Below are positions 9,037-43,010 of a DNA stretch of 44,287 nt, piece after piece. The translations under genes were made by a program, and so were the position numbers. The stretch is from NCBI GenBank assembly GCA_013335935.1, contig JAAXUP010000009.1, positions 1-44,287 on the forward strand. The letters run 5' to 3'. The notes beneath the pieces were generated by a model, which was not told where the DNA came from, did no database searches, and saw nothing but the letters and a program-made list of their open reading frames with translations. This DNA comes from Eubacteriaceae bacterium. Lineage in GTDB: Bacteria > Bacillota > Clostridia > Eubacteriales > Alkalibacteraceae. Every line of letters starts with the position of its first letter. Position 1 is the stretch's first letter.

Positions 9037-9078
9037 TTGGACAAGGGGACGTTTCGTTTGTCCCATAGTCCCCTTGCC
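9037..9078. repeat. REP-like palindromic element, inverted copy (REP-a)
   Basis: GGACAAgGGGACGTTTCGTTTGTCC is the reverse complement of the REP core at 9916 and 10712. It adds an outer 9-bp stem, CAAGGGGAC/GTCCCCTTG. Confidence 0.8.
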
Positions 9079-9086
9079 ATCTCATC

Positions 9087-9845
9087 CTAATTTTTCAGAG
9101 ATTTTACGACAGCACCTTTACTGAGCCCCATTACTCTGCCGATTTGCCTTATACTTGCTCCGGTATCCAAATATATTTGCTTCAATAATCTTTGCTTTTC
9201 ATTAGGATCCGTCAAAACCTTATCTTTAAAATATTCTCTACGGATAAGTATTGCTAAATCACTATCTGTATATATTTTTTTTTCTGAATACTCGAGACAG
9301 GTTCCCTTCACCAACTCCTTTGTAGTTTTTTCAAAGTTGTTTTTACTATCTATAAGTTCAAATATTATTTCCGGATCGATTATCTTAACATCACTTCTAT
9401 TTTCATACAAATTTATGTACGCCATGTAGCTGCTCCATTCATATTCCTCGCATGACGCAACCATATAAGCATTCACCGGATTTTGATGGATATACCGCAG
9501 AACAGAAATCAGGTACTCCTCGTTCTCAACAGGTTCACTTAAAAATCTGTTCTGAAAAAGATGACCTACTCTTGCGTACTTGCCATTATGCCATTGTGCA
9601 TAACTAATTGCGATCCTTTTAATACTTATTCCAAGTTCTTCTCCTTCTTTCATCAGGATATGAACGTGGTTATTCATCAGACAATATCCAAGCAAAGAAA
9701 ATTTTCCGGTTTCCTTTGATTTTGCAATGGAATCAATAAATTTTCTTCTGTCCTCGTTATCAATAAATATATCTCTTTTATCTAAACCTCTAAGCATTAC
9801 ATGATGAATTCCCGTGAGACTTTTTTTTCGATTTTGTCTCGGCAT
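9087..9845 (-). CDS. REP-associated tyrosine transposase (RAYT, IS200/IS605-like Y1 HUH transposase), with a C-terminal HTH extension
   Basis: HuH motif NNHVHILMK and catalytic-Tyr region LRYIHQNPV. ~120 aa of extra C-terminus ends in an HTH (ASIRQIGRVMGLSKGAV). Start taken at MPRQ, preceded by a GGGGTGAT RBS. Confidence 0.8.
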   Translation of the reverse strand: MPRQNRKKSLTGIHHVMLRGLDKRDIFIDNEDRRKFIDSIAKSKETGKFSLLGYCLMNNHVHILMKEGEELGISIKRIAISYAQWHNGKYARVGHLFQNRFLSEPVENEEYLISVLRYIHQNPVNAYMVASCEEYEWSSYMAYINLYENRSDVKIIDPEIIFELIDSKNNFEKTTKELVKGTCLEYSEKKIYTDSDLAILIRREYFKDKVLTDPNEKQRLLKQIYLDTGASIRQIGRVMGLSKGAVVKSLKN

Positions 9846-9848
9846 AAA

Positions 9849-9945
9849 ATCACCCCTATTAGACAATTATACAGTCAAACAGGGGTTCCTTTATTCTTTG
9901 TAAAATTTAATGTAGTTGGACAAACGAAACGTCCCGCTGTCCGGG
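9849..9945. repeat. Composite repeat, copy 1: hairpin H1 (AATCACCCCTATTAGAC..CAGTCAAACAGGGG), spacer, then REP-b (TGGACAAACGAAACGTCCCGCTGTCCGGG)
   Basis: Same architecture as copy 2 at 10654-10745. The 29-bp REP core is identical between the two. Confidence 0.75.
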
Positions 9946-9947
9946 TT

Positions 9948-10592
9948 TTAAATTAATTCAGCCCCTAACTGATATACATTTTCTAAATCGATAGGGAAGA
10001 CTTCCTCATGTCGCTTTAGCCTCTGCTCTACATCAAACATATCGGAAACGTACTTTGAGTAGTCTTTAAACTGAAGGGTTTCTGTTGAGAAATAGGAACG
10101 GGCATCTCCTTGAAAAAGCATTTTACTCAATCTTTCATTGCTAGACAAACTTTCTTCCAAATGCATCTTTTTAACCGCTTCTTCTGGAGCATTCATGGTA
10201 TAGATGAATAAAGTATTTAGCTTGCCAGTAAACAGTGATCGCTGTTTTTCTTTGGTATAAATTAAATATGGGAACCATAATCTTTCAAGAAAGCATCTCA
10301 GCATACCTGTTACGTTCCCGAAATAAATGGGTGAACCAAAAATAACTCCATCCGCATCTCCGAAGTTTTGAAGCAGAGGCGTCAGATCATCCTTCATGGC
10401 ACATTTTCCGTAATTTTTCCCATCTTTTAATTTACAGGCAAAACAACTGGTACAACCTCTGTAGTCTAAATCGTATAGATTGATCAGCTCTGTGTCTGCA
10501 CCTTTAGAAGAAGCACCTTCTAATGCACTCTTTAATAATTTCGAGGTATTCCAATCTTTCCTGGGGCTTGCATTATAAGCAACAACTTTCAT
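9948..10592 (-). CDS. Flavodoxin-like NAD(P)H-dependent FMN reductase family protein
   Basis: MKVVAYNASPRK...GSPIYFGNVTG is the typical NADPH-dependent FMN reductase / iron-sulfur flavoprotein N-terminus. A Cys cluster CTSCFAC is present. Confidence 0.65.
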   Translation of the reverse strand: MKVVAYNASPRKDWNTSKLLKSALEGASSKGADTELINLYDLDYRGCTSCFACKLKDGKNYGKCAMKDDLTPLLQNFGDADGVIFGSPIYFGNVTGMLRCFLERLWFPYLIYTKEKQRSLFTGKLNTLFIYTMNAPEEAVKKMHLEESLSSNERLSKMLFQGDARSYFSTETLQFKDYSKYVSDMFDVEQRLKRHEEVFPIDLENVYQLGAELI

Positions 10593-10653
10593 AAGACCAC
10601 CATCCTTTAAAATCAATTATAACAAAACGCGGAATGTTTAAACAGCGCAATAA

Positions 10654-10745
10654 ATCACCCCTATTTGACTGCGAACAGTCGAATAGGGGTGATACGTAGA
10701 TTAAAGTTAGCTGGACAAACGAAACGTCCCGCTGTCCGGGGTTCG
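10654..10745. repeat. Composite repeat, copy 2: near-perfect 16-bp inverted repeat CACCCCTATTTGACTG/CAGTCGAATAGGGGTG, spacer, then REP-c
   Basis: Seen directly. It lies immediately 3' of the aroD stop codon. Confidence 0.75.
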
Positions 10746-10747
10746 AT

Positions 10748-11503
10748 TTATGAAATTCGCATCAGGTTCAGGATATTTCTGGCATCATCGACACCGATCT
10801 GCCCAGGTGCGGAAATCTGTTTAGCTGCTGCAAAGGTCATGCAAGACCCTACCAATTCTCCGGCAAGACGGGATACTACCCCCAGAGCTCCCATGGACAT
10901 GGTGATGCATGGCCGGTCTCCTTTGGATTTCTTCATTTCTAATGTTGCGCTGAGCAAGGTCATGACATCCTCTTCGGATTGGGGCATGACCGCAATTTTT
11001 GTGATATCCGCGCCATACTCCTGCATTTTCATCAGTCGTTTTACCAATTCTTCTTTTTCAGGGGTCTTGAAAAAATCATGGTTTGACATAATGACTTTTA
11101 CATGGTTTTCATGTGCGTATGCAATCAGCTTGTTGATCTCCTCGGCTGTGCTAAAGAGCTCCACATCCACCAGGTCGATCAAGCCGCTTTCGATAGCGGC
11201 CCGATTGAGGGCGAAATATTTCTCTTCGGACATCTCATGGACGCCCCCTTCTTTTTTGGTTCTGAAAGTGAAAAGCAGCGGTTTAGAGCAGATTTCCCGG
11301 ATCTTCCCCAGAAGAGCTTTGACCTTATCCAGATCTTCTACGTCTTCATAGTGGTCGACTCGAAATTCTACGACATCATAGTCAACAGAACTCAGAAATT
11401 TGAATTCCTCTATAACGCCTTCTTCTGTTTTTCCAACGATGGGAACACAGATTTTAGGTGCGCCTTCATTGAAAATGATATCTTTAACTTTTAATGTTTT
11501 CAT
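10748..11503 (-). CDS. aroD: 3-dehydroquinate dehydratase, type I
   Basis: AroD family pattern across its length. Confidence 0.8.
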   Translation of the reverse strand: MKTLKVKDIIFNEGAPKICVPIVGKTEEGVIEEFKFLSSVDYDVVEFRVDHYEDVEDLDKVKALLGKIREICSKPLLFTFRTKKEGGVHEMSEEKYFALNRAAIESGLIDLVDVELFSTAEEINKLIAYAHENHVKVIMSNHDFFKTPEKEELVKRLMKMQEYGADITKIAVMPQSEEDVMTLLSATLEMKKSKGDRPCITMSMGALGVVSRLAGELVGSCMTFAAAKQISAPGQIGVDDARNILNLMRIS

Positions 11504-16497: not shown

Positions 16498-16748
16498 TTT
16501 CTCAACTCCTTTCTGATTCAAACAAGAAAAGCAACTGCGTATTCACAGCTGCTCCAATGACAAATAAAATAAGAATCATGGGCAACTGGCTACCTTTGGA
16601 TCTCCCTTTAGGCCCTACAGTTTTGCGTCCCCGCTTTTCAGCAGGTTTGCCTTTTCAACTAATTCAAAATTGTATATCTGTATGTATTTATGACAATTTT
16701 ATACCCTGGATATCTCTTGTTCAAACATTTTCCTGCGATGCTCCTGTC

Positions 16749-27478: not shown

Positions 27479-27495
27479 AAACAAAAATATACAAG

Positions 27496-27655
27496 GTTAT
27501 AGGTGCTCTTAAAGAGAGAATAGGGAATCAGGTGTAAATCCTGAACGGGCCCGCCACTGTAACAGGTTAGTGTATGCCATTGCCACTCATTGTTCGGGGA
27601 AGGCGGCATATGCAACGATCCTTAAGTCAGGAGACCTGCCTATAACTTGAATGAT
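27496..27655 (+). promoter_or_regulatory. Cobalamin (B12) riboswitch
   Basis: Matches the cobalamin riboswitch core AGGGAAtcaGGTGtAAATCCtgaACGGGCCCGCCACTGTAA and the B12 box GTCAGGAGACCTGCC. Confidence 0.85.
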
Positions 27656-27693
27656 CTGTCCCGAGTCAGGATGGAGATTTGTGAGGATGTTGG

Positions 27694-30207: not shown

Positions 30208-31467
30208 ATGACTGATTTTTTTGTAAACAACCGAAAGAAGCTTATAGAAAGTTTGAATGATAAATCTCTGCTGGCCGTGTTCTCAGGGTCTGCTCCTCAC
30301 CGTTCTGCAGATGCGTATTACTTTTTTGATGTGAATAAAAACTTTTACTATTTGACGGGAATCGAGAGGGAAAAATTCATCTATGCTGCGGTCAAGACAA
30401 AGGAAATTGTGGAGGAGTTTCTGTTTATCGAAAAAGCCGACCCGGTTCTAGAGAAATGGACCGGCAAGAAGATGACAAAAGAAGAGGCAACGGACATTTC
30501 AGGAATAAAGACCATTTATTTTCTGGACGAATTCCATGGAAAGGTCAATTCTCTGGTTGCCAGCAACAACAAGCCCATTGAAAATGTTGCTCTTGACATG
30601 TACCGGAATGCTTTTGATGACAAGCATAGTCCTGCCGGTGATTTTGCCTCTTACATCAAGGAGAAATACCCCCAGTTAAAAATCGACGATATTTCGAAAA
30701 AATTCGCTGTTCAGCGCTTTATCAAGTCTGATTCTGAGGTTCAAAGAATCAGGAAAGCCGTGACCATCACGAAAAACACCTTCGAACTCCTGTTGGAGAA
30801 AGCACCCATGTGCACATATGAGTATGAGCTTGAAGCCTATCTGGATTTTTCTTTTAAATTCCAGGGTACGGACCACGCTTTTGATACTATTGCCGCTTCA
30901 GGAAAAAATGCCACCGTCTTGCACTATGTGGACAATAATTCACAGATGACATCCGGAGACCTGGTCATGTTCGATTTCGGGGCCAGATACGAAAATTACT
31001 GTGCCGACATCAGCAGGACCTTCCCTTTGAACGGAAAATTCAACACAAGGCAAAAACAAGTATATAACGTTGTTTTAGAGACTTTGAAGGAGACCTCCTC
31101 ACGGATGAAACCGGGCATTTCCATGAAGGAAATCAATGAGTTCGCAAAAGATATGCTTGCAGAAGGCGCCATCAGGCTGGGCCTCATCAAGGAAAAATCC
31201 GAAATCGGAAAATACTATTACCACGGAATTGGACATCCCCTGGGACTTGATACCCACGACGTGGGAGACCGGGAGATGGTTTTAAAGCCTGGGATGGTCT
31301 ATACCTGTGAACCGGGACTTTATATCGAAGAGGAAGGCATCGGCATCAGGATCGAGGACGACATCCTGATCACCGAAAATGGAAGTGAAAACCTGTCAAA
31401 GGAAATCATCAAAGAAGTCGATGAGATTGAAGCGTTCATGGCTAATGCCATGCGGTTAAAAGCTTAA
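30208..31467 (+). CDS. M24-family Xaa-Pro aminopeptidase / creatinase-fold peptidase
   Basis: Pita-bread metal ligands (DFGARY..D, HGIGH, E..E) and an N-terminal creatinase-like domain. Confidence 0.8.
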   Translation: MTDFFVNNRKKLIESLNDKSLLAVFSGSAPHRSADAYYFFDVNKNFYYLTGIEREKFIYAAVKTKEIVEEFLFIEKADPVLEKWTGKKMTKEEATDISGIKTIYFLDEFHGKVNSLVASNNKPIENVALDMYRNAFDDKHSPAGDFASYIKEKYPQLKIDDISKKFAVQRFIKSDSEVQRIRKAVTITKNTFELLLEKAPMCTYEYELEAYLDFSFKFQGTDHAFDTIAASGKNATVLHYVDNNSQMTSGDLVMFDFGARYENYCADISRTFPLNGKFNTRQKQVYNVVLETLKETSSRMKPGISMKEINEFAKDMLAEGAIRLGLIKEKSEIGKYYYHGIGHPLGLDTHDVGDREMVLKPGMVYTCEPGLYIEEEGIGIRIEDDILITENGSENLSKEIIKEVDEIEAFMANAMRLKA

Positions 31468-31517
31468 ATGCTTAAATGCTTAAATGCTTAAATGCTTAAA
31501 TGCTTAAATGCTTAAAA
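31462..31517. repeat. Tandem 8-bp microsatellite (GCTTAAAT), 7 copies, starting inside the aminopeptidase stop codon
   Basis: Seen directly. Confidence 0.9.
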
Positions 31518-31530
31518 TAAATGATACAAA

Positions 31531-31580: not shown

Positions 31581-31713
31581 CAACCACCAAACCACCTAGT
31601 CACCTAACCACCAAGTAAGTCGTAAGTCCTAAGTATGCCAGATTTCAGCATTCCTGGCACTTCAACATTTCAACACTTCAACACTTAAACACTTAAACAT
31701 TTCCATGCCTTTG
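31580..31713. repeat. Low-complexity blocks: CCAACCACCAAACCACC..., TAAGTC repeats, and a degenerate 8-bp tandem (CACTTCAA/CATTTCAA/CACTTAAA), ~6 copies
   Basis: Seen directly. Confidence 0.8.
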
Positions 31714-36738: not shown

Positions 36739-38193
36739 TTATTCCCCAGCTTTCTTAATGGTTTCCAGAACCGCTCTGGCCTTGCTCATTGTTTCCCTGT
36801 ATTCTGATTCAGGTACTGAATCTGCGACGATTCCCGCCCCTGCCTGGACGATGGCATAACCGTCCTTAAAAATGACCGTTCGTATGGTGATGCAGGTGTC
36901 CATGTTTCCGTTGAAGCCGAAGTAGCCCACCCCTCCGCCATAGATGCCTCTCCGGGTATTTTCCAGTTCCTCGATAATTTCCATTGCTCTTACTTTTGGG
37001 GCCCCTGATAGGGTACCTGCCGGGAGACACGCTTTGAGAGCATCAAACATATCGTACTTCTCCCTGATCCGCCCTGCTACATTAGATACGATGTGCATAA
37101 CATGGGAGTATTTCTGTATTTCCATGAAGTGGGTAACTTCAACGGAGCCAAATTCTGAAACCCTTCCGATATCGTTTCTGGCCAGATCCAGGAGCATCAG
37201 GTGTTCTGCCCTTTCCTTATCATCTTCCAAAAGATCAGCTGCCAGTTCCTGGTCTTCCTCTTCCGTCTTACCTCGAGGCCTCGTTCCTGCAATGGGACAA
37301 GTTTCGATAACTCCGTCAGCAACTTTAACCAGCAGTTCCGGGGAAGAACCGACGACACAGTAGTCCTCAAAATTCATGTAATACAGATAGGGTGATGGAT
37401 TTACGCTCCGCAGTACCCGGTAGGCCGCAAAAGGATCGATGTCGGTCTTTGCCTTAAGCCGCTGAGACAGAACCACCTGGAAGATATCACCTTTACGGAT
37501 ATATTCTTTCGCCTGTACGACTTTTTTGCAGAAGGATTCTTCCGTCTCATTGCTCTCGAAGACCACTTCTCCGCTTTTTACACTTTTATCGGGTTTAACC
37601 GGTGATGTTCGTATTTCTTCCGCAATATCGTTTAACTTCTTCTCGATTTCGCCATAGGTCACGTTCTGTTTGAAACTATTGTAGACAATGAATATCTTCT
37701 GCTTCATGTGATCATACACGATGATTTCCTTCATCATCAAAAGATGAATCTCCGGCACATTCAGCTCATCAGGATTTTCCTGAGGTAGCGTCTCGATCTC
37801 TCTTACCAGGTCGTAAGTGACATATCCTACCGCACCACCAGGAAATTCGGGTATAATCAGGGAATTGGTCTTAGGGTATTTGATATCCCCAAAATACATC
37901 TTTAGATTGTCCAGGCTCTTTCCTTCATGAAGGACTTCCCCGTCTTCTGTTGCGATTTTCGTTATCCCATCCCGGCTGGTAATCTCTCCGTAAGGGTTTC
38001 TTCCAATATAGGAATATCTTCCCCATTTGCTTCCGCCCTCAACGCTTTCCAACAGAAAACTCTTGCCTCCATTGCATAGCTTCTTAAAGATGCTGATGGG
38101 TGTATCCGTATCTCCATGGATCACTGAAACAAAAGGGATTACTGTATATTCTTCTTTTAGTTTTTGATATTCTTCCATTGATGGGTAAAGCAT
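36739..38193 (-). CDS. trpE: Anthranilate synthase component I
   Basis: Chorismate-binding enzyme family (LLESVEGG...GAGIVADS). Confidence 0.9.
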   Translation of the reverse strand: MLYPSMEEYQKLKEEYTVIPFVSVIHGDTDTPISIFKKLCNGGKSFLLESVEGGSKWGRYSYIGRNPYGEITSRDGITKIATEDGEVLHEGKSLDNLKMYFGDIKYPKTNSLIIPEFPGGAVGYVTYDLVREIETLPQENPDELNVPEIHLLMMKEIIVYDHMKQKIFIVYNSFKQNVTYGEIEKKLNDIAEEIRTSPVKPDKSVKSGEVVFESNETEESFCKKVVQAKEYIRKGDIFQVVLSQRLKAKTDIDPFAAYRVLRSVNPSPYLYYMNFEDYCVVGSSPELLVKVADGVIETCPIAGTRPRGKTEEEDQELAADLLEDDKERAEHLMLLDLARNDIGRVSEFGSVEVTHFMEIQKYSHVMHIVSNVAGRIREKYDMFDALKACLPAGTLSGAPKVRAMEIIEELENTRRGIYGGGVGYFGFNGNMDTCITIRTVIFKDGYAIVQAGAGIVADSVPESEYRETMSKARAVLETIKKAGE

Positions 38194-38229
38194 GATTAAC
38201 TTCCTCCTTTGGATGTTGGTGCACGAGAA

Positions 38230-38304
38230 CAGCGTCTTTGACGCGTTATTCTCGTGTGATAGTAAAGTTTGGACCCCAGCGAGCTAGTCGAACTTTCCTA
38301 TCAC
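38230..38304. repeat. 5'-UTR repeat, copy A (core AAAGTTTGGACCCCAGCGAGCTAGTCGAACTTTCCT at 38264-38299)
   Basis: Near-identical to 42143-42177. The flanking 30 nt are also related (AGCGTC, ACGCGTTATTC). Confidence 0.8.
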
Positions 38305-38650
38305 AAAAAAAAGTCCCTATCATATTTCTATGATAAGGACGAATAGGTTATCCGTGGTGCCACCTCTGTTAGATCCTACATACAAAAAAACATCCCGTCC
38401 CTATAGGACGAAATGCTGTGCATTCGCTCTGCCACCTAATTTGTATATATTCTCTCACTTTATCAGGTACGGAATCAGCTGGACTGTTCGATACCCTGTC
38501 TCTATAACGTGAAACCCACGGCGTCAGCTACTCTTTACATTTCACCTTGCTTCTCGGGGAACCATTCAGACATTGCTCTCGTTCCGGGCTCACACCATCC
38601 CCGGTTCGCTGCACTCAAACGAATTGTCTTACTTTTTCCCGTCGTCGAAT
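38305..38650 (-). promoter_or_regulatory. T-box leader of the trp operon, candidate tRNA-Trp responsive
   Basis: Minus-strand RNA carries the T-box-like sequence AACAGAGGUGGCACCACGG and a strong terminator (GUCCUUAUCAUAgaaaUAUGAUAGGGAC-U9). Upstream is a second T-box-like AAUUAGGUGGCA, an AGAGA motif, and a loop GAAUGGU containing UGG. Confidence 0.6.
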
Positions 38651-38663
38651 TTTGCTTTAAATC

Positions 38664-38693
38664 AATATACTACAGATACGCTCATTATGTCAA
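38664..38693 (-). promoter_or_regulatory. trp operon sigmaA promoter (minus strand): TTGACA, 18-nt spacer, TATATT
   Basis: Seen directly. Confidence 0.55.
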
Positions 38694-38756
38694 CGTTTTT
38701 TTATATCGTGAAACCAATTAGGATCAGTTTAAAGCACGATGAAGAAACGAGCAGGA

Positions 38757-38795
38757 TTAAAAAAAATCTGACCCGCGCATTCGTGGGTCAGATCC
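38757..38795 (-). terminator. hcp terminator (minus strand)
   Basis: ctgacccacgaatgcgcgggtcag followed by U8 on the minus strand. Confidence 0.8.
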
Positions 38796-38846
38796 TTCCA
38801 TATCTATTCTCTATTCTCTTTTATCTGTTCTCTTTTGTCTAGGATA

Positions 38847-40412
38847 TTAACCCAGGATCGCTTTCAGGTCCGCTTCCGGAGTAGTGATTGGCTTTAATGC
38901 AAATTTGTCTACCAGAACACTTAGCACGGTAGGTGAGAAGAACGCCGGCAGTGATGGTCCGATGTAGATATTCTTGATGCCTAAAGCTAAAAGTGTAAGA
39001 AGTATACAAACCGCTTTCTGCTCATACCATGAAAGTACCAATGTCAGCGGAAGTTCATTGACTCCAACACCAAAGGCTTCGGCAAGGGCTACGGCTACCT
39101 GGATAGCTGAGTAGGCATCGTTGCATTGTCCCATGTCCATGATTCTTGGAAGTCCGCCGATTTCTCCGATATTAAGATCATTGAATCTGAACTTGCCGCA
39201 TGCAAGAGTCAGTATTATTGTATCTTTCGGAGTCTGCTCAACAAATTCTGTGTAGTAGTTTCTGCCAGGCTTAGCACCATCGCAGCCGCCTACCAGGAAG
39301 AAATGCTTGATGGCTCCGCCTTTTACCGCGTCGATCACAGTATCTGCAACGCCAAGAACGGTATTTCTTGCAAAACCAGTCATCATGGTGTCTCCACCAT
39401 TTAAGCCTGTGAAGTTCTGATCTTCCTTGAATCCACCAAGAGCAAGGGCTTTTTCGATAACCGGTGAAAAATCCTTCACTCCGTCTTTTCCGTCAGGAAT
39501 ATGCTTAAGTCCCGGGTATTCAACAACTGCAGTGGTATAGATATTATCCTTATAAGAATCTTTTGGTGGCATTAAGCAGTTTGTCGTAAACAGGATCGCT
39601 CCAGGCAGCTTTTCAAATTCTTTGTGCTGATTCTGCCATGCTGTTCCAAAGTTTCCTTTGAGGTGTGCATATTTTTTAAGTTCCGGATAACCATGTGCCG
39701 GAAGCATTTCGCCGTGAGTGTAGATGTTGATTCCTTTTCCTTCTGTTTGCTCAAGAAGCTGCTTAAGATCCAGCAGATCGTGTCCTGTGACAACAATAAA
39801 AGGTCCTTTCTCAACTTTTGTAGTTACTGCGGTTGGAACAGGATGTCCGTAAGCTGATGTGTTTGCTTCATCCAAAAGACCCATACATTTCAGGTTCATC
39901 ATACCAAATTCCATAAGCAAACCAAGCCATTCGTCAACAGAATGATCGTCCCCTAAAGCTTTCATACCTTTATAGAACCATGCTGTTACTTCAGGATCAT
40001 CTTTGCCCAATGCATGGGCATGATAGGCGTAAGCTGCCATCCCTCTGAGTCCCAATAACAGTGTAGATCTCAAGGATCTTATATCTTCATTGCCAGTCCA
40101 AAGCTCCGTCCATGGGAAATTTTCTGCCCCGCCATACAGTGCTTTTTCTGCTTCCACCTGAACAACTAATTCTTCGACTTTCGTTTCATCGAAGTTTACA
40201 TTTGTGACTTCCGTAAAGAGACTTTCCAGCATCAGCTTATTTGCATTCTCACTGGGAGTCTTTCCTTCTACTGCTCTTGCTAATCCGATCAGGGCACCTG
40301 TTAATTCATCCTGCTTGTTTGAAACTGCAGGTGATTTTCCACAAGCACCATATTTCGTACAAGCTACCCCTCCTACTGTCTGTTCGCACTGAAAACAAAA
40401 CATGTCTGACAT
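38847..40412 (-). CDS. hcp: Hydroxylamine reductase / hybrid-cluster protein
   Basis: N-terminal CFQCEQT...C..C...C cluster motif and Hcp family length. Confidence 0.9.
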   Translation of the reverse strand: MSDMFCFQCEQTVGGVACTKYGACGKSPAVSNKQDELTGALIGLARAVEGKTPSENANKLMLESLFTEVTNVNFDETKVEELVVQVEAEKALYGGAENFPWTELWTGNEDIRSLRSTLLLGLRGMAAYAYHAHALGKDDPEVTAWFYKGMKALGDDHSVDEWLGLLMEFGMMNLKCMGLLDEANTSAYGHPVPTAVTTKVEKGPFIVVTGHDLLDLKQLLEQTEGKGINIYTHGEMLPAHGYPELKKYAHLKGNFGTAWQNQHKEFEKLPGAILFTTNCLMPPKDSYKDNIYTTAVVEYPGLKHIPDGKDGVKDFSPVIEKALALGGFKEDQNFTGLNGGDTMMTGFARNTVLGVADTVIDAVKGGAIKHFFLVGGCDGAKPGRNYYTEFVEQTPKDTIILTLACGKFRFNDLNIGEIGGLPRIMDMGQCNDAYSAIQVAVALAEAFGVGVNELPLTLVLSWYEQKAVCILLTLLALGIKNIYIGPSLPAFFSPTVLSVLVDKFALKPITTPEADLKAILG

Positions 40413-40656
40413 TCAAATTCCTCCTTAGTTTTTATTATTAAATAATAATCTTGCAGGAAACATTTTCGCATATGATATTTACCCGTTTCCCTGTCTTTCT
40501 AAACTATTACTTAACATCCTACCCTTTCAGGTATTTTTCTTTTGTTTATAGGTTGATTATAATATAATAGTTTTAATAAATCGGTAACTGAGGCTACCAA
40601 ATGTCAAGTTTAACAAATAAATATCAAATAATTATATGCAAAAAGGAGGAATTGCG

Positions 40657-41163
40657 ATGATTTCAGCAATTTTTATGGACATGATCGATTATTTTCAGGA
40701 GGATATTAAAAGAATCAACCATGCGCTAAAAGTGCATTCCTTTGCCCGGCTGATTGGCGAAAAAGAGCTCATCAGCAGTCCGGATAAGCACCATATGATG
40801 AGCATCATTGAACTTACGGCAATTCTCCATGATATTGGCATTAAAATCAGCGAAGAGAAATACGGCTCCCCTTCCGGCAAATATCAGGAAATCGAAGGAC
40901 CGGATATTGCCCGGGGAATAATGAAGAAAAATCAGACAGAGGAAAATGTCATGGACAGGGTATGTTTTATCATCGGAAACCACCATACCTACGGAAAAAT
41001 CGACCGATTGGATTTTCAGATCATCGTGGAAGCGGATTTTCTTGTAAATATCCATGAGGACGAACTGCCTGAAATTTCAATCTCCAGGTTAAAAGAAAAA
41101 CATTTCAGGACTGAAACGGGAAACAAACTCGTGGACAGTCTATATCTGAGACCCTGGCAATAA
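40657..41163 (+). CDS. HD-domain phosphohydrolase
   Basis: H..LHDIG and an NHH motif. AAGGAGG RBS. Confidence 0.6.
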   Translation: MISAIFMDMIDYFQEDIKRINHALKVHSFARLIGEKELISSPDKHHMMSIIELTAILHDIGIKISEEKYGSPSGKYQEIEGPDIARGIMKKNQTEENVMDRVCFIIGNHHTYGKIDRLDFQIIVEADFLVNIHEDELPEISISRLKEKHFRTETGNKLVDSLYLRPWQ

Positions 41164-41168
41164 GACCC

Positions 41169-42083
41169 TTAGCGCTTCTTACCAGAACCGGCGATTCTCT
41201 CCACAAAAACCCCTATCTGACCCACTGCCCTTCGAGCTTCAGGAATGAGATAGTAGAAAAACTGCCACACATGAAACATTCCTTTGTAGATCTCCAGACT
41301 GACATCCACATGACAGTTTTTCAGAGCCTTTGCCATTTGGATGGAATCATCGTAAAGAATCTCTTCGGTGCCGATTTGAATCATCGTTTTTGGAAGCCCT
41401 GTCAGATCGGCATAAACTGGTGAAATCAGCGGATTTTCAGGATCTTCATTTTTGCAGTAGTACCCTGAGCATCTTTTGATAATATCCGGATTTAAAAGCG
41501 GGTCTCGTTTCGCTCTGGTCTTGATGCTTTTTCCGGATAACGTCAAATCTGTCCAGGGGGACATGCAGACAATTCCTGCTGGAAGACTTATCCCCTCAGC
41601 CTTAAGTTTTACACAAGTTGACAAGGCAAGACCTCCTCCTGCGGAGTCTCCAACGAGGAAAATCGCTTCACTTTTATACCCTTTTTCAATAAGCCATTTG
41701 AATGCCTTTACGCTGTCCTGGATGGCGCCGGGAAAAGGATGCTCCGGAGCCAGTCTGTAATTTATGATCAAAAGCTCTGCTCTGCATGTATCGGCAATCT
41801 TTCGGGCAAGGATCCGGTAGGATTTTACGGTACCTGTACAGTAAGCTCCTCCATGAAGATACAGAATGATACGTCCTGGCACGAATTCTTCTCCCTCTAT
41901 GATCTGCCCTTTTATATCCCCAATCCTGACATCGATGAATTCACCACCAGGAATCAGATTGAGGATCCTGGCATTTCTCTCCTGGATTTTTCTTTTTTTC
42001 TTTATCCCCACCACTTGATTATCAGCGTTCAGGTTATACTTTCTTAGCAATTTTTCAATTAATTTGCTTTGCCAACTGGACAT
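41169..42083 (-). CDS. Alpha/beta-hydrolase esterase/lipase (HSL/Aes family)
   Basis: Oxyanion hole HGGAY, nucleophile elbow GDSAGG. AGGAGGG RBS before MSSWQ. Confidence 0.8.
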   Translation of the reverse strand: MSSWQSKLIEKLLRKYNLNADNQVVGIKKKRKIQERNARILNLIPGGEFIDVRIGDIKGQIIEGEEFVPGRIILYLHGGAYCTGTVKSYRILARKIADTCRAELLIINYRLAPEHPFPGAIQDSVKAFKWLIEKGYKSEAIFLVGDSAGGGLALSTCVKLKAEGISLPAGIVCMSPWTDLTLSGKSIKTRAKRDPLLNPDIIKRCSGYYCKNEDPENPLISPVYADLTGLPKTMIQIGTEEILYDDSIQMAKALKNCHVDVSLEIYKGMFHVWQFFYYLIPEARRAVGQIGVFVERIAGSGKKR

Positions 42084-42106
42084 TTGTATCCCTCCTGTTC
42101 GCTGTA

Positions 42107-42180
42107 AACAAGCGTCGACCACACGTTATTCAAGTATACAAGGAAAGTTTGGACCACAGCGAGCTAGTCGAACTATCCTA
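42107..42180. repeat. 5'-UTR repeat, copy B (core 42143-42177)
   Basis: See copy A. Confidence 0.8.
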
Positions 42181-42185
42181 GTTTA

Positions 42186-42230
42186 ATAAGAAAAGCCCAC
42201 AGAAATTTCCGCAGGCTTGTTTTTGAGGTT
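42186..42230 (-). terminator. Terminator of the zinc-ribbon gene
   Basis: aagccugcgg...cugugggcuu hairpin (with G-U pairs) followed by a U-run on the minus strand. Confidence 0.5.
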
Positions 42231-42232
42231 TG

Positions 42233-42397
42233 TTAGAATCTTGATCCTCTGCTTTTTTGCTGTTTTCTTGCTTTTCTGCAGTCAGGACATCTTACCGGAT
42301 CGTTTTCGAATCCTTTTTCCTGATAGAAAGCCTGTTCACTTTCAGTGAAAACAAATTCGCTTCCGCAGTCCTTGCAATCTAATCTTTTGTCAGCCAT
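42233..42397 (-). CDS. CxxC-x17-CxxC zinc-ribbon small protein (54 aa). Not in the supplied ORF track because it is under 60 aa.
   Basis: Translation is MADKRLDCKDCGSEFVFTESEQAFYQEKGFENDPVRCPDCRKARKQQKSRGSRF. GGAAAGGAG RBS. Confidence 0.65.
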   Translation of the reverse strand: MADKRLDCKDCGSEFVFTESEQAFYQEKGFENDPVRCPDCRKARKQQKSRGSRF

Positions 42398-42527: not shown

Positions 42528-43010
42528 TCAATAATCGAGGAAAGGAATTTCACCATTTCTAAATTTTTTACACTCCCCAATGGCGCTGCACATCTGGCAA
42601 TTCCTGGAGAGTTTGTCGCTTTTATAGAGAACCCTTGAAAGGTCTGAATTGGATTCCATATTCCTGTGACTGCCTATTGCGTCACTGATCATATTGATTT
42701 CGATCCTGTTAAAATCGTTTCTTACCAGAATCTCCTCTGATAGTCTGGCACTTGACACCGCATGGTCCTCTCCGTTTTCATATTCAAGCCACCTTCCGGT
42801 GTCGTGAAGCAGCGCTGCAGCATAAACGATTTCCTTTTCTATGTCCAGTCCTTCTTCCAAGACCAGAATCCAGGCAATTCTTGCAACATCTAAAAAGTGA
42901 GGCATGTCATGTCTGCAAAAAATCCTGTCTTTTTCAGCTTTCTGATTTTTCTCCACATATTCCAGATATTTTTGGTCTCTGATGATTTTATTCACCCTGA
43001 CCATGCTCAT
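42528..43010 (-). CDS. HD-domain phosphohydrolase, encoded next to the folate genes
   Basis: HD motif (RHDMPHFLDV...LLHDTG). Its 3' end overlaps the folK start. Confidence 0.6.
   Translation of the reverse strand: MSMVRVNKIIRDQKYLEYVEKNQKAEKDRIFCRHDMPHFLDVARIAWILVLEEGLDIEKEIVYAAALLHDTGRWLEYENGEDHAVSSARLSEEILVRNDFNRIEINMISDAIGSHRNMESNSDLSRVLYKSDKLSRNCQMCSAIGECKKFRNGEIPFLDY

Follow-up and report, generated by a model that had tools for sequence, protein, structure and literature searches.

A two-hairpin repeat located behind transcription terminators in a Eubacteriaceae contig and in Alkalibaculum

Results

Two copies of a short element upstream of trpE and an esterase gene

The window analyzed here is the whole 44,287-nt contig (JAAXUP010000009.1) of an NCBI metagenome-assembled genome (MAG) labelled Eubacteriaceae bacterium. 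Two copies of a non-coding element of approximately 85 nt, c1 and c2, lie on its minus strand. Copy c1 (38222..38304) is located in the leader of trpE, between the T-run of the T-box terminator and the ribosome-binding site. trpE (36739..38193, minus strand, ATG at 38193; Pfam Chorismate_bind and Anth_synt_I_N) encodes anthranilate synthase component I and is the first gene of the trp operon, followed on the same strand by trpG and trpD (Pfam). Copy c2 (42102..42184) is located between the terminator of a small zf_Tbcl zinc-finger gene (42233-42397) and the ribosome-binding site of an esterase/lipase-type alpha/beta hydrolase gene (41169..42083, minus strand, ATG at 42083; Pfam Abhydrolase_3, 7.6e-58), whose exact protein is present in the searched collection. 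A hybrid-cluster (Prismane) protein (38847-40412) and an HD-domain protein (42528-43010) are also encoded on the minus strand, as judged by Pfam. This arrangement bears out an earlier note on the sequence, which had assigned both copies to the transcribed minus strand, each preceded by a terminator and followed by a ribosome-binding site, that of trpE in one case and that of the esterase gene in the other.

A degenerate 36-mer has exactly two matches in the window, on the plus strand at 38264-38299 and 42144-42179, which differ from each other by two mismatches; no match was found in 100 dinucleotide-preserving shuffles. The near-identical pair that the earlier note had described is therefore present, although its second member had been placed 1-2 nt off, at 42143-42177. 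The flanking sequences had also been called related. A repeat finder widened the pair to a 70-nt direct repeat (family D2) of 80% identity, 38231-38300 versus 42111-42180, with the likeness of the flanks on the low-coordinate side. The two copies are thus direct repeats, 3.88 kb apart. The covariance model R1 scored c1 at 109 bits and c2 at 100.5 bits; a weak match inside an open reading frame (ORF) at 30690-30756 was taken as noise.

The T-box leader upstream of c1 (38332..38654, minus strand) was matched by Rfam RF00230 with 76.3 bits (E 1e-16), under the gathering threshold of 93 bits. In its specifier loop the conserved GAA is followed by UGG (Trp) as the specifier codon, and the leader is genuine though sub-threshold. 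The whole Trp T-box region (38313-38660, minus strand) contains one Stem I/specifier domain and two successive modules, each with a T-box sequence (GGUGGCA) and a terminator. The two modules account for a 79-nt insert in the Rfam alignment and for the sub-threshold score. The same arrangement is found upstream of trpE in four related contigs (L015, L018, L022 and L024) and is thus kept in five lineages.

Hairpin anatomy

The repeat unit is approximately 83-91 nt long and consists of two hairpins, H1 then H2. H1 is a long hairpin of 17 pairs with an invariant 12-nt loop, UAGCUCGCUGNG. In the case of c1, folding and pair counts place H1 at 38256..38304, with a base of GUGAUAG/CUAUCAC, a middle of AAAGUU/AACUUU, a small internal loop and a top of GAC/GUC; the loop, UAGCUCGCUGGG, occupies 38275-38286. 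The imperfect palindrome GTGATAG...CTATCAC that had been seen in the trp copy is the base of this hairpin. In c2, H1 spans 42136-42184, with the loop UAGCUCGCUGUG at 42155-42166.

H2 is a short G+C hairpin with the core GCGUC-NNN-GACGC and a U-rich tail, which A-rich and U-rich flanks extend so that it looks like a two-way terminator. The folded H2 of c1 (38223..38255) has the core GCGUC-AAA-GACGC at 38232-38244, lengthened by ACGAGAAUA/UGUUCUCGU, and the core of c2 is located at 42112-42124. The c1 core was scored as terminator-like on the plus strand only. The U-tail is degenerate in c1 and c2 and intact (T7) in a copy from Alkalibaculum sporogenes, A1, whose H2 was scored as an intrinsic terminator.

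The minimum free energy fold of c1 is -38.1 kcal/mol, far better than its shuffles (z = -4.2), whereas c2 and A1 fold no better than shuffles (z = -0.06 and +0.21). Pair counts were made over five family members, with slid partners as controls. The proposed pairs are standard in 84.5% of cells, compared with 42-49% in the slid controls, and six pairs have been altered on both sides, a number reached by 7 of 500 shuffles. With five sequences, these counts lend modest, if consistent, support to the idea that the hairpin is maintained, and they do not say whether it matters as RNA or as DNA. Wobble pairs across the copies (8 G.T versus 5 A/C) display no strand asymmetry, and assignment of an active strand from changes that only G.U pairing would tolerate was dropped on this count. 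No pairing with ribosome-binding sites was seen in the folds of the window copies. Terminal inverted repeats are also lacking, as one end of the unit is part of H1 and the other part of H2, a separate hairpin, with no complementarity between the two.

Absence from orthologous leaders

The nearest relatives, represented by several metagenome or MAG contigs, have TrpE proteins 74% identical to that of the window. Their T-box leaders score 96-98 bits with Rfam and, as in L015, align at 74% nucleotide identity up to the terminator. In these leaders the ribosome-binding site follows within approximately 13 nt of the terminator T-run; the window has approximately 92 extra nt at this point, which is the c1 element. 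Orthologous esterase loci (58-62% amino acid identity) keep the order folK-HD-esterase-HD-hcp, and none of them contains the element. Profile searches and R1, run over approximately 240 kb of sampled Eubacteriaceae DNA, returned no copy in the trp and esterase relatives. As far as these loci can be compared, the element is shown to be an insertion relative to the nearest relatives and not a conserved leader element.

The esterase locus differs from its relatives in a second respect. There, the esterase gene begins 24-263 nt after the HD gene, and in the window the zf_Tbcl gene, its terminator (42193-42218) and c2 split it from the fol-HD operon. Because these intervene, the esterase may depend on read-through here. 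A scan found no sigma-70-like promoter within the window copies, and an element-borne esterase promoter was dropped since no such site lies between the upstream terminator and the ATG.

A second public assembly of this organism, a separately built Logan contig from run SRR11449212 (4112 nt, equal to window 38284-42395), agrees with the window in c2, in the beginning of c1 and in the sequences around them; its reads are possibly the MAG's own. The contig ends inside the c1 loop, which could reflect polymorphism in the population or further genomic copies.

Copies in Alkalibaculum

One genome per species was scanned with an exact 22-mer of the core, and a single site was found, in the cultured strain Alkalibaculum sporogenes M08DMB (GCA_009362815.1). 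This copy, A1 (738-826 of locus L001), has the same H1/H2 layout and a 27-nt core 100% identical to the window. On one side of it is the terminator of a flavoprotein gene, and on the other a galactitol-type phosphotransferase system (PTS) operon. The sigma-54 promoter of that operon (TTGGCACGATAATTGCT) lies downstream of A1, and A1 is therefore not in the PTS leader. Profile searches and R1 added two diverged copies. One of them, L021a, directly follows the trp operon terminator in A. sporogenes. The other, L022a, belongs to a second Alkalibaculum-type genome and is found approximately 600 nt beyond trpA; the trp operons of this genome and of A. sporogenes share 78% nucleotide identity. The earlier note had held that confinement to two sites and absence from the orthologous leaders of close relatives would speak for a chance local duplication. 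The absence is real, but the element is not confined to two sites, and a chance local duplication is rejected.

Identity between copies does not follow location. c1 is 79% identical to A1 and only 69% identical to c2, which is on the same contig. Conservation is also uneven along the unit: among c1, c2 and A1 the upper part of H1 is 91-94% identical and the remainder 55-71%. The genes beside the copies are unrelated, namely trpE, the esterase gene, the PTS operon with its own promoter, the 3' end of trpA and an HlyD-type gene.

Several side observations concern these loci. Trp operons adjoin four of six family members (c1; L021a and L021b; L022a) in three genomes, although L021 and L022 were fetched via TrpE and this may be ascertainment. 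An 11-mer, TAAGTAGGTGC, is shared by the two Alkalibaculum-type genomes (L001 714-724 and L022 9881-9891), in each of which it is located in a hairpin loop close behind a terminator. In L001 it immediately precedes A1 and in L022 it immediately follows the trp T-box terminator, and it may mark another small repeat family. The A. sporogenes PTS operon carries TGTAATTACA repeats upstream of its sigma-54 promoter (L001 1036-1052; also L025 and L026, upstream of PTS IIB) and has a LevR-type activator. Both L025 and L026, which are orthologous PTS contigs, break 200-300 nt upstream of this promoter. A role for A1 as a RAT/BglG-type antiterminator was dropped, given the operon's own sigma-54 promoter and LevR-type activator and the absence of PTS genes near the other copies.

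Insertion sites

The 70 nt upstream of each of the five clear copies were analyzed. All contain a strong hairpin with a T-run behind it, and 0-13 nt separate this run from the element, which has the same orientation as the hairpin. Upstream of c1 is the T-box terminator, the final one of the trp leader (stem 38313-38340), whose T8 abuts the copy, and c2 follows the intrinsic terminator of the zf_Tbcl gene (stem 42193-42218), whose T-rich tail runs into it. In Alkalibaculum, A1 lies behind a second hairpin that follows the flavoprotein terminator, L021a behind the 18-bp trp operon terminator and L022a behind the terminator of a small ORF. The position of c1 within a transcription unit argues for recognition of the terminator structure over mere tolerated insertion behind genes. 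All clear copies are on the strand of the flanking genes and are co-oriented with local transcription; as expected of a leading strand, this strand of the window is on the whole rich in G.

No target-site duplication was found at the five clear copies beyond a shared T-richness, and 30 of 120 flank permutations score as high. A duplication suggested by the likeness of the T-rich flanks was dropped, as true pairs are no better than cross pairs.

The contig end upstream of trpE in A. sporogenes (WHNX01000024, locus L021 1-600) contains an ORF built from 45-aa units in tandem, KEQMKTCFHLANARVETNSRSEFVDALRGSFEEADKWLANLAVLT; the 600 nt that precede trpE in this species yielded no T-box. The ORF is broken at one unit boundary by a 169-nt, strongly palindromic insert (L021 320-488), and two adjacent units that are intact provide the empty sites for comparison. 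The insert holds an H1-like hairpin (GAAAGTTTGGCCAGCTTGCTGAGTTAAAC) and the 11-mer CGTCGAAGACG of A1's H2, and it is a probable relative of the family. Read in the orientation of the element, it lies 7-9 nt after a 10-bp hairpin and TTCTTTT, the same kind of site as those of the five clear copies. A terminator is not needed at this site, which is antisense to a coding region. Comparison of the filled and empty units revealed no target duplication.

Comparison with known families

Database searches did not place the element in a known family. Rfam 15, searched at gathering thresholds and with E up to 10 over both window copies and the Alkalibaculum copies, gave chance hairpin matches only and no group II intron model. 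An exact-pattern scan of JGI metagenomes returned four matches, all of them chance matches in high-GC coding DNA, and a scan of viral contigs and blastn against plasmids and phages returned nothing. By eye, none of cre, CIRCE, CtsR, the LexA box, tRNA or tmRNA fragments, ssoA CS-6 and integron attC fits the conserved positions. By their defining tests the family is not a repetitive extragenic palindrome (REP), a MITE (miniature inverted-repeat transposable element) or a group IIC intron, although it resembles each in some respect.

REPs are single palindromes of 20-40 bp with a GTAG (or CGTC) tag at one end, and they flank their RAYT gene (PMC3733652). The element shares several features with REPs and REPINs, which are mobilized by RAYT, a Y1 transposase like those of IS200/IS605 (PMC3733652). 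Both are short extragenic hairpin repeats with conserved hairpin features and drift elsewhere, lack terminal inverted repeats and target duplications, often lie behind genes and are often transcribed in 3' ends; a RAYT-like gene is also present on the host contig. Unlike a REP, the element spans 83-91 nt and has two dissimilar hairpins. It has no GTAG at a conserved position, the 5' foot of H1 being TAGG, TAGG, CAGG, TATG and TAGG in the five copies, and CGTC is found inside the H2 stem in three copies, with GTGT or CGTT in the others.

The RAYT-like gene of the window (9090-9845, minus strand; 252 aa, NTW71166.1) encodes a Y1 transposase that has a C-terminal extension as well as HUH and YxxxNP motifs. 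It matches Pfam Y1_Tnp at 8.5e-11 and NCBIfam REP_Tyr_transpos at 64 bits, under the cut-off of 80. It is flanked by inverted copies of GGACAAACGAAACGTCC (9039-9942), with a third copy at 10713-10729, a REPtron-like arrangement in a Firmicute, and not by the element described here. Approximately 110 nt around the right-hand GGACAAACGAAACGTCC repeat (9842-9955) have a duplicate at 10647-10750, and an FMN-reductase gene lies between the two. Alignments of the element with GGACAAACGAAACGTCC are no better than those of shuffles (p 0.19-0.96). Kinship with the RAYT-flanking repeats was dropped for this reason, and the two families are distinct, in agreement with the earlier note, which had set the element apart from the REP of the window.

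Group IIC introns insert directly downstream of an inverted repeat and T's, in terminator orientation and without target duplication (PMC1702495). All five clear copies and the 169-nt relative lie in targets of this type. These introns are ribozymes that exceed 600 nt, comprise domains I-VI and usually contain a reverse-transcriptase ORF, whereas the element is 85 nt (169 nt in its larger relative) and gives no Intron_gpII match. With the ORF-less derivatives of IS200/IS605 the element has in common sub-terminal hairpins and the lack of terminal inverted repeats and target duplications (PMC6006769). Insertion 3' of a short specific sequence, here the T-run, and in fixed orientation are further likenesses to this group, in which the IS moves by single-strand transposition (PMC6006769). 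However, IS608 and ISDra2 have a tnpA gene and left and right hairpins that are alike, while H1 and H2 are unrelated, and in the element the conserved part is the apex of the hairpin and not its foot and the cleavage site.

The MITE-like repeats bcr1 of the Bacillus cereus group and RUP and BOX of pneumococci are also structured intergenic repeats of approximately 100 nt in Gram-positives, located in 5' and 3' untranslated regions (UTRs), patchy between strains or species and able to alter flanking transcripts (PMC3184786). They have terminal inverted repeats and/or defined target duplications, and the element has neither. The target duplication of bcr1 is TTTAT.

Other features of the window

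Just downstream of the trp operon, between convergent genes, an 8-nt tandem repeat, TTAAATGC, occurs in approximately eight copies together with a run of the related TTCAACAC/TTAAACAC (31448-31524 and 31669-31697). The window also contains two riboswitches, a cobalamin riboswitch (27484-27657, plus strand, 112.8 bits) and a c-di-GMP-I riboswitch (16578-16661, minus strand, 73.2 bits).

Discussion

The copies are insertions, and their sites in the different genera are not orthologous; each is oriented like the terminator and lies directly 3' of a hairpin and T-run. The interpretation that we favour, with some reserve, is that they belong to an undescribed family of ~85-nt non-coding interspersed hairpin repeats, found in this MAG and in Alkalibaculum, which is non-autonomous and inserts after terminators. 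The preference for sites behind terminators is unusual. One of the two readings offered by the earlier note, a small mobile repeat that prefers terminator-proximal sites, is borne out by the absence of the element from orthologous trp and esterase leaders, by its non-orthologous sites in another genus and by the co-oriented position of all five clear copies behind terminators. The presence of Y1/HUH machinery encoded by the host, in the form of the RAYT-like gene, also counts in its favour.

If so, an enzyme acting in trans would move the element, recognizing the H1 hairpin and the T-run/hairpin target, and the conserved H1 apex would be the part that it reads. Transposition would probably take place on single-stranded DNA in the Y1 (HUH) manner of IS200/IS605, or the choice of target may be analogous to that of group IIC introns. 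In the trpE and esterase leaders the element would be a passenger, co-transcribed on read-through and adding two stable hairpins to the 5' UTR. The U-tail of H2 appears to have decayed in c1 and c2, and there H2 would no longer resemble an efficient terminator. Such decay would be expected if transcription still needed to read through into trpE and the esterase gene.

The other reading of the earlier note, a shared cis-regulatory RNA or processing/stability element, found no support: orthologous conservation, a common gene function, an Rfam match and pairing with ribosome-binding sites are all lacking, and the element is not a regulatory signal common to trpE and the esterase gene. A side effect at the RNA level is conceivable. 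The main rival to a mobile repeat is a host-selected RNA element, in which selection would maintain H1 and H2 in read-through or leader RNA, where they would act in cis with the loop as a recognition site, for example as a protein-binding hairpin, as a determinant of RNase processing or stability, or as a back-up terminator or insulator behind leaky terminators. The conserved H1 apex in two genera, the two-sided changes in the stem, the common orientation with local transcription, the A1 hairpin with its T7 and the stable fold of c1 would all be accommodated by such an RNA. Yet the nearest relatives do without it in their orthologous leaders, the adjoining genes have no function in common, and most copies lie behind efficient-looking terminators and would rarely be transcribed. 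The lack of an Rfam match and of pairing with ribosome-binding sites, the shuffle-like folds of c2 and A1 and the wobble pairs without strand asymmetry point in the same direction, and we regard a host-selected RNA as rather unlikely.

The same symmetry of wobble pairs, with the inverted-repeat architecture AGTTCGAC-N12-GTCCAAACT and its invariant centre, would suit a double-stranded DNA site, such as an operator or a recombination site at which a DNA-binding protein would rearrange the flanking genes or regulate them jointly. However, an invariant 12-bp spacer and a second hairpin are atypical of operators, the sites lie downstream of promoters and terminators with no sigma-70-like promoter overlapping them, and unrelated genes follow them whose orthologous regulatory regions lack the site. 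The genes between c1 and c2 are in the order of relatives without the repeat, so the copies bound no inserted island; c1 and c2 as borders of a 3.9-kb island were dropped on this ground. A DNA site of this kind is quite improbable. Lastly, only two copies are present in the 44-kb window and the window is a MAG contig, as a chance duplication or assembly artefact limited to this contig would have it. This explanation is already refuted, and next to no weight is left to it, by the identical 27-nt core in a cultured strain of another genus and the diverged copies, by the Logan contig, with its reads of possibly the same origin, and by the 20-30% difference between c1 and c2, which does not fit a recent duplication.

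Several observations weigh against the mobile repeat itself. Adjacency to a terminator is partly forced in the short intergenic regions of c1, c2 and L021a, although it is not forced in A1 and L022a. The clear copies total five, in approximately 240 kb of sampled Eubacteriaceae DNA, with coverage of one contig of the MAG and approximately 20 kb of A. sporogenes, and the 169-nt insert is a borderline member that R1 matches at only 19.8 bits (E 0.08). None of the relatives compared is >90% identical at the nucleotide level, and there is no exact empty site for c1 or c2. The uneven conservation is unlike that of freely decaying dead copies and could reflect a function of the H1 apex at the level of the host; the wobble count does not identify an active strand. 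No autonomous partner or cognate enzyme was found in the 345 kb examined, where the sole Y1 gene has other flanks.

A bolder form of the mobile-repeat interpretation is more speculative, and we hold it to be doubtful as a whole. It describes a terminator-homing two-hairpin element that carries its own terminator-like hairpin, whose enzyme would read UAGCUCGCUGNG and insert it on single-stranded DNA behind any hairpin and T-run, including riboswitch and T-box attenuators, and which would have crossed genera of the Eubacteriaceae. The evidence base is 5-6 copies, and the wider significance is still unproven.

Were the terminator-homing reading correct, the element would be a Gram-positive counterpart that joins a REP-like anatomy to the target choice of group IIC introns. 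On the favoured interpretation of a mobile repeat, the element would be a compact and recognizable repeat behind terminators that is found even in a T-box leader, past the attenuator and before the start codon. Annotation would then have to avoid recording the element as a new regulatory RNA of trp or as a tandem riboswitch. For the evolution of leaders, insertion would bring two stable hairpins and a potential second terminator, whose tail seemingly decayed where read-through was needed. Group IIC introns are to date the best-known case of targeting to terminator structures, and a tiny ORF-less element with such a choice of site would point to another enzyme that reads hairpin-plus-T-run targets.

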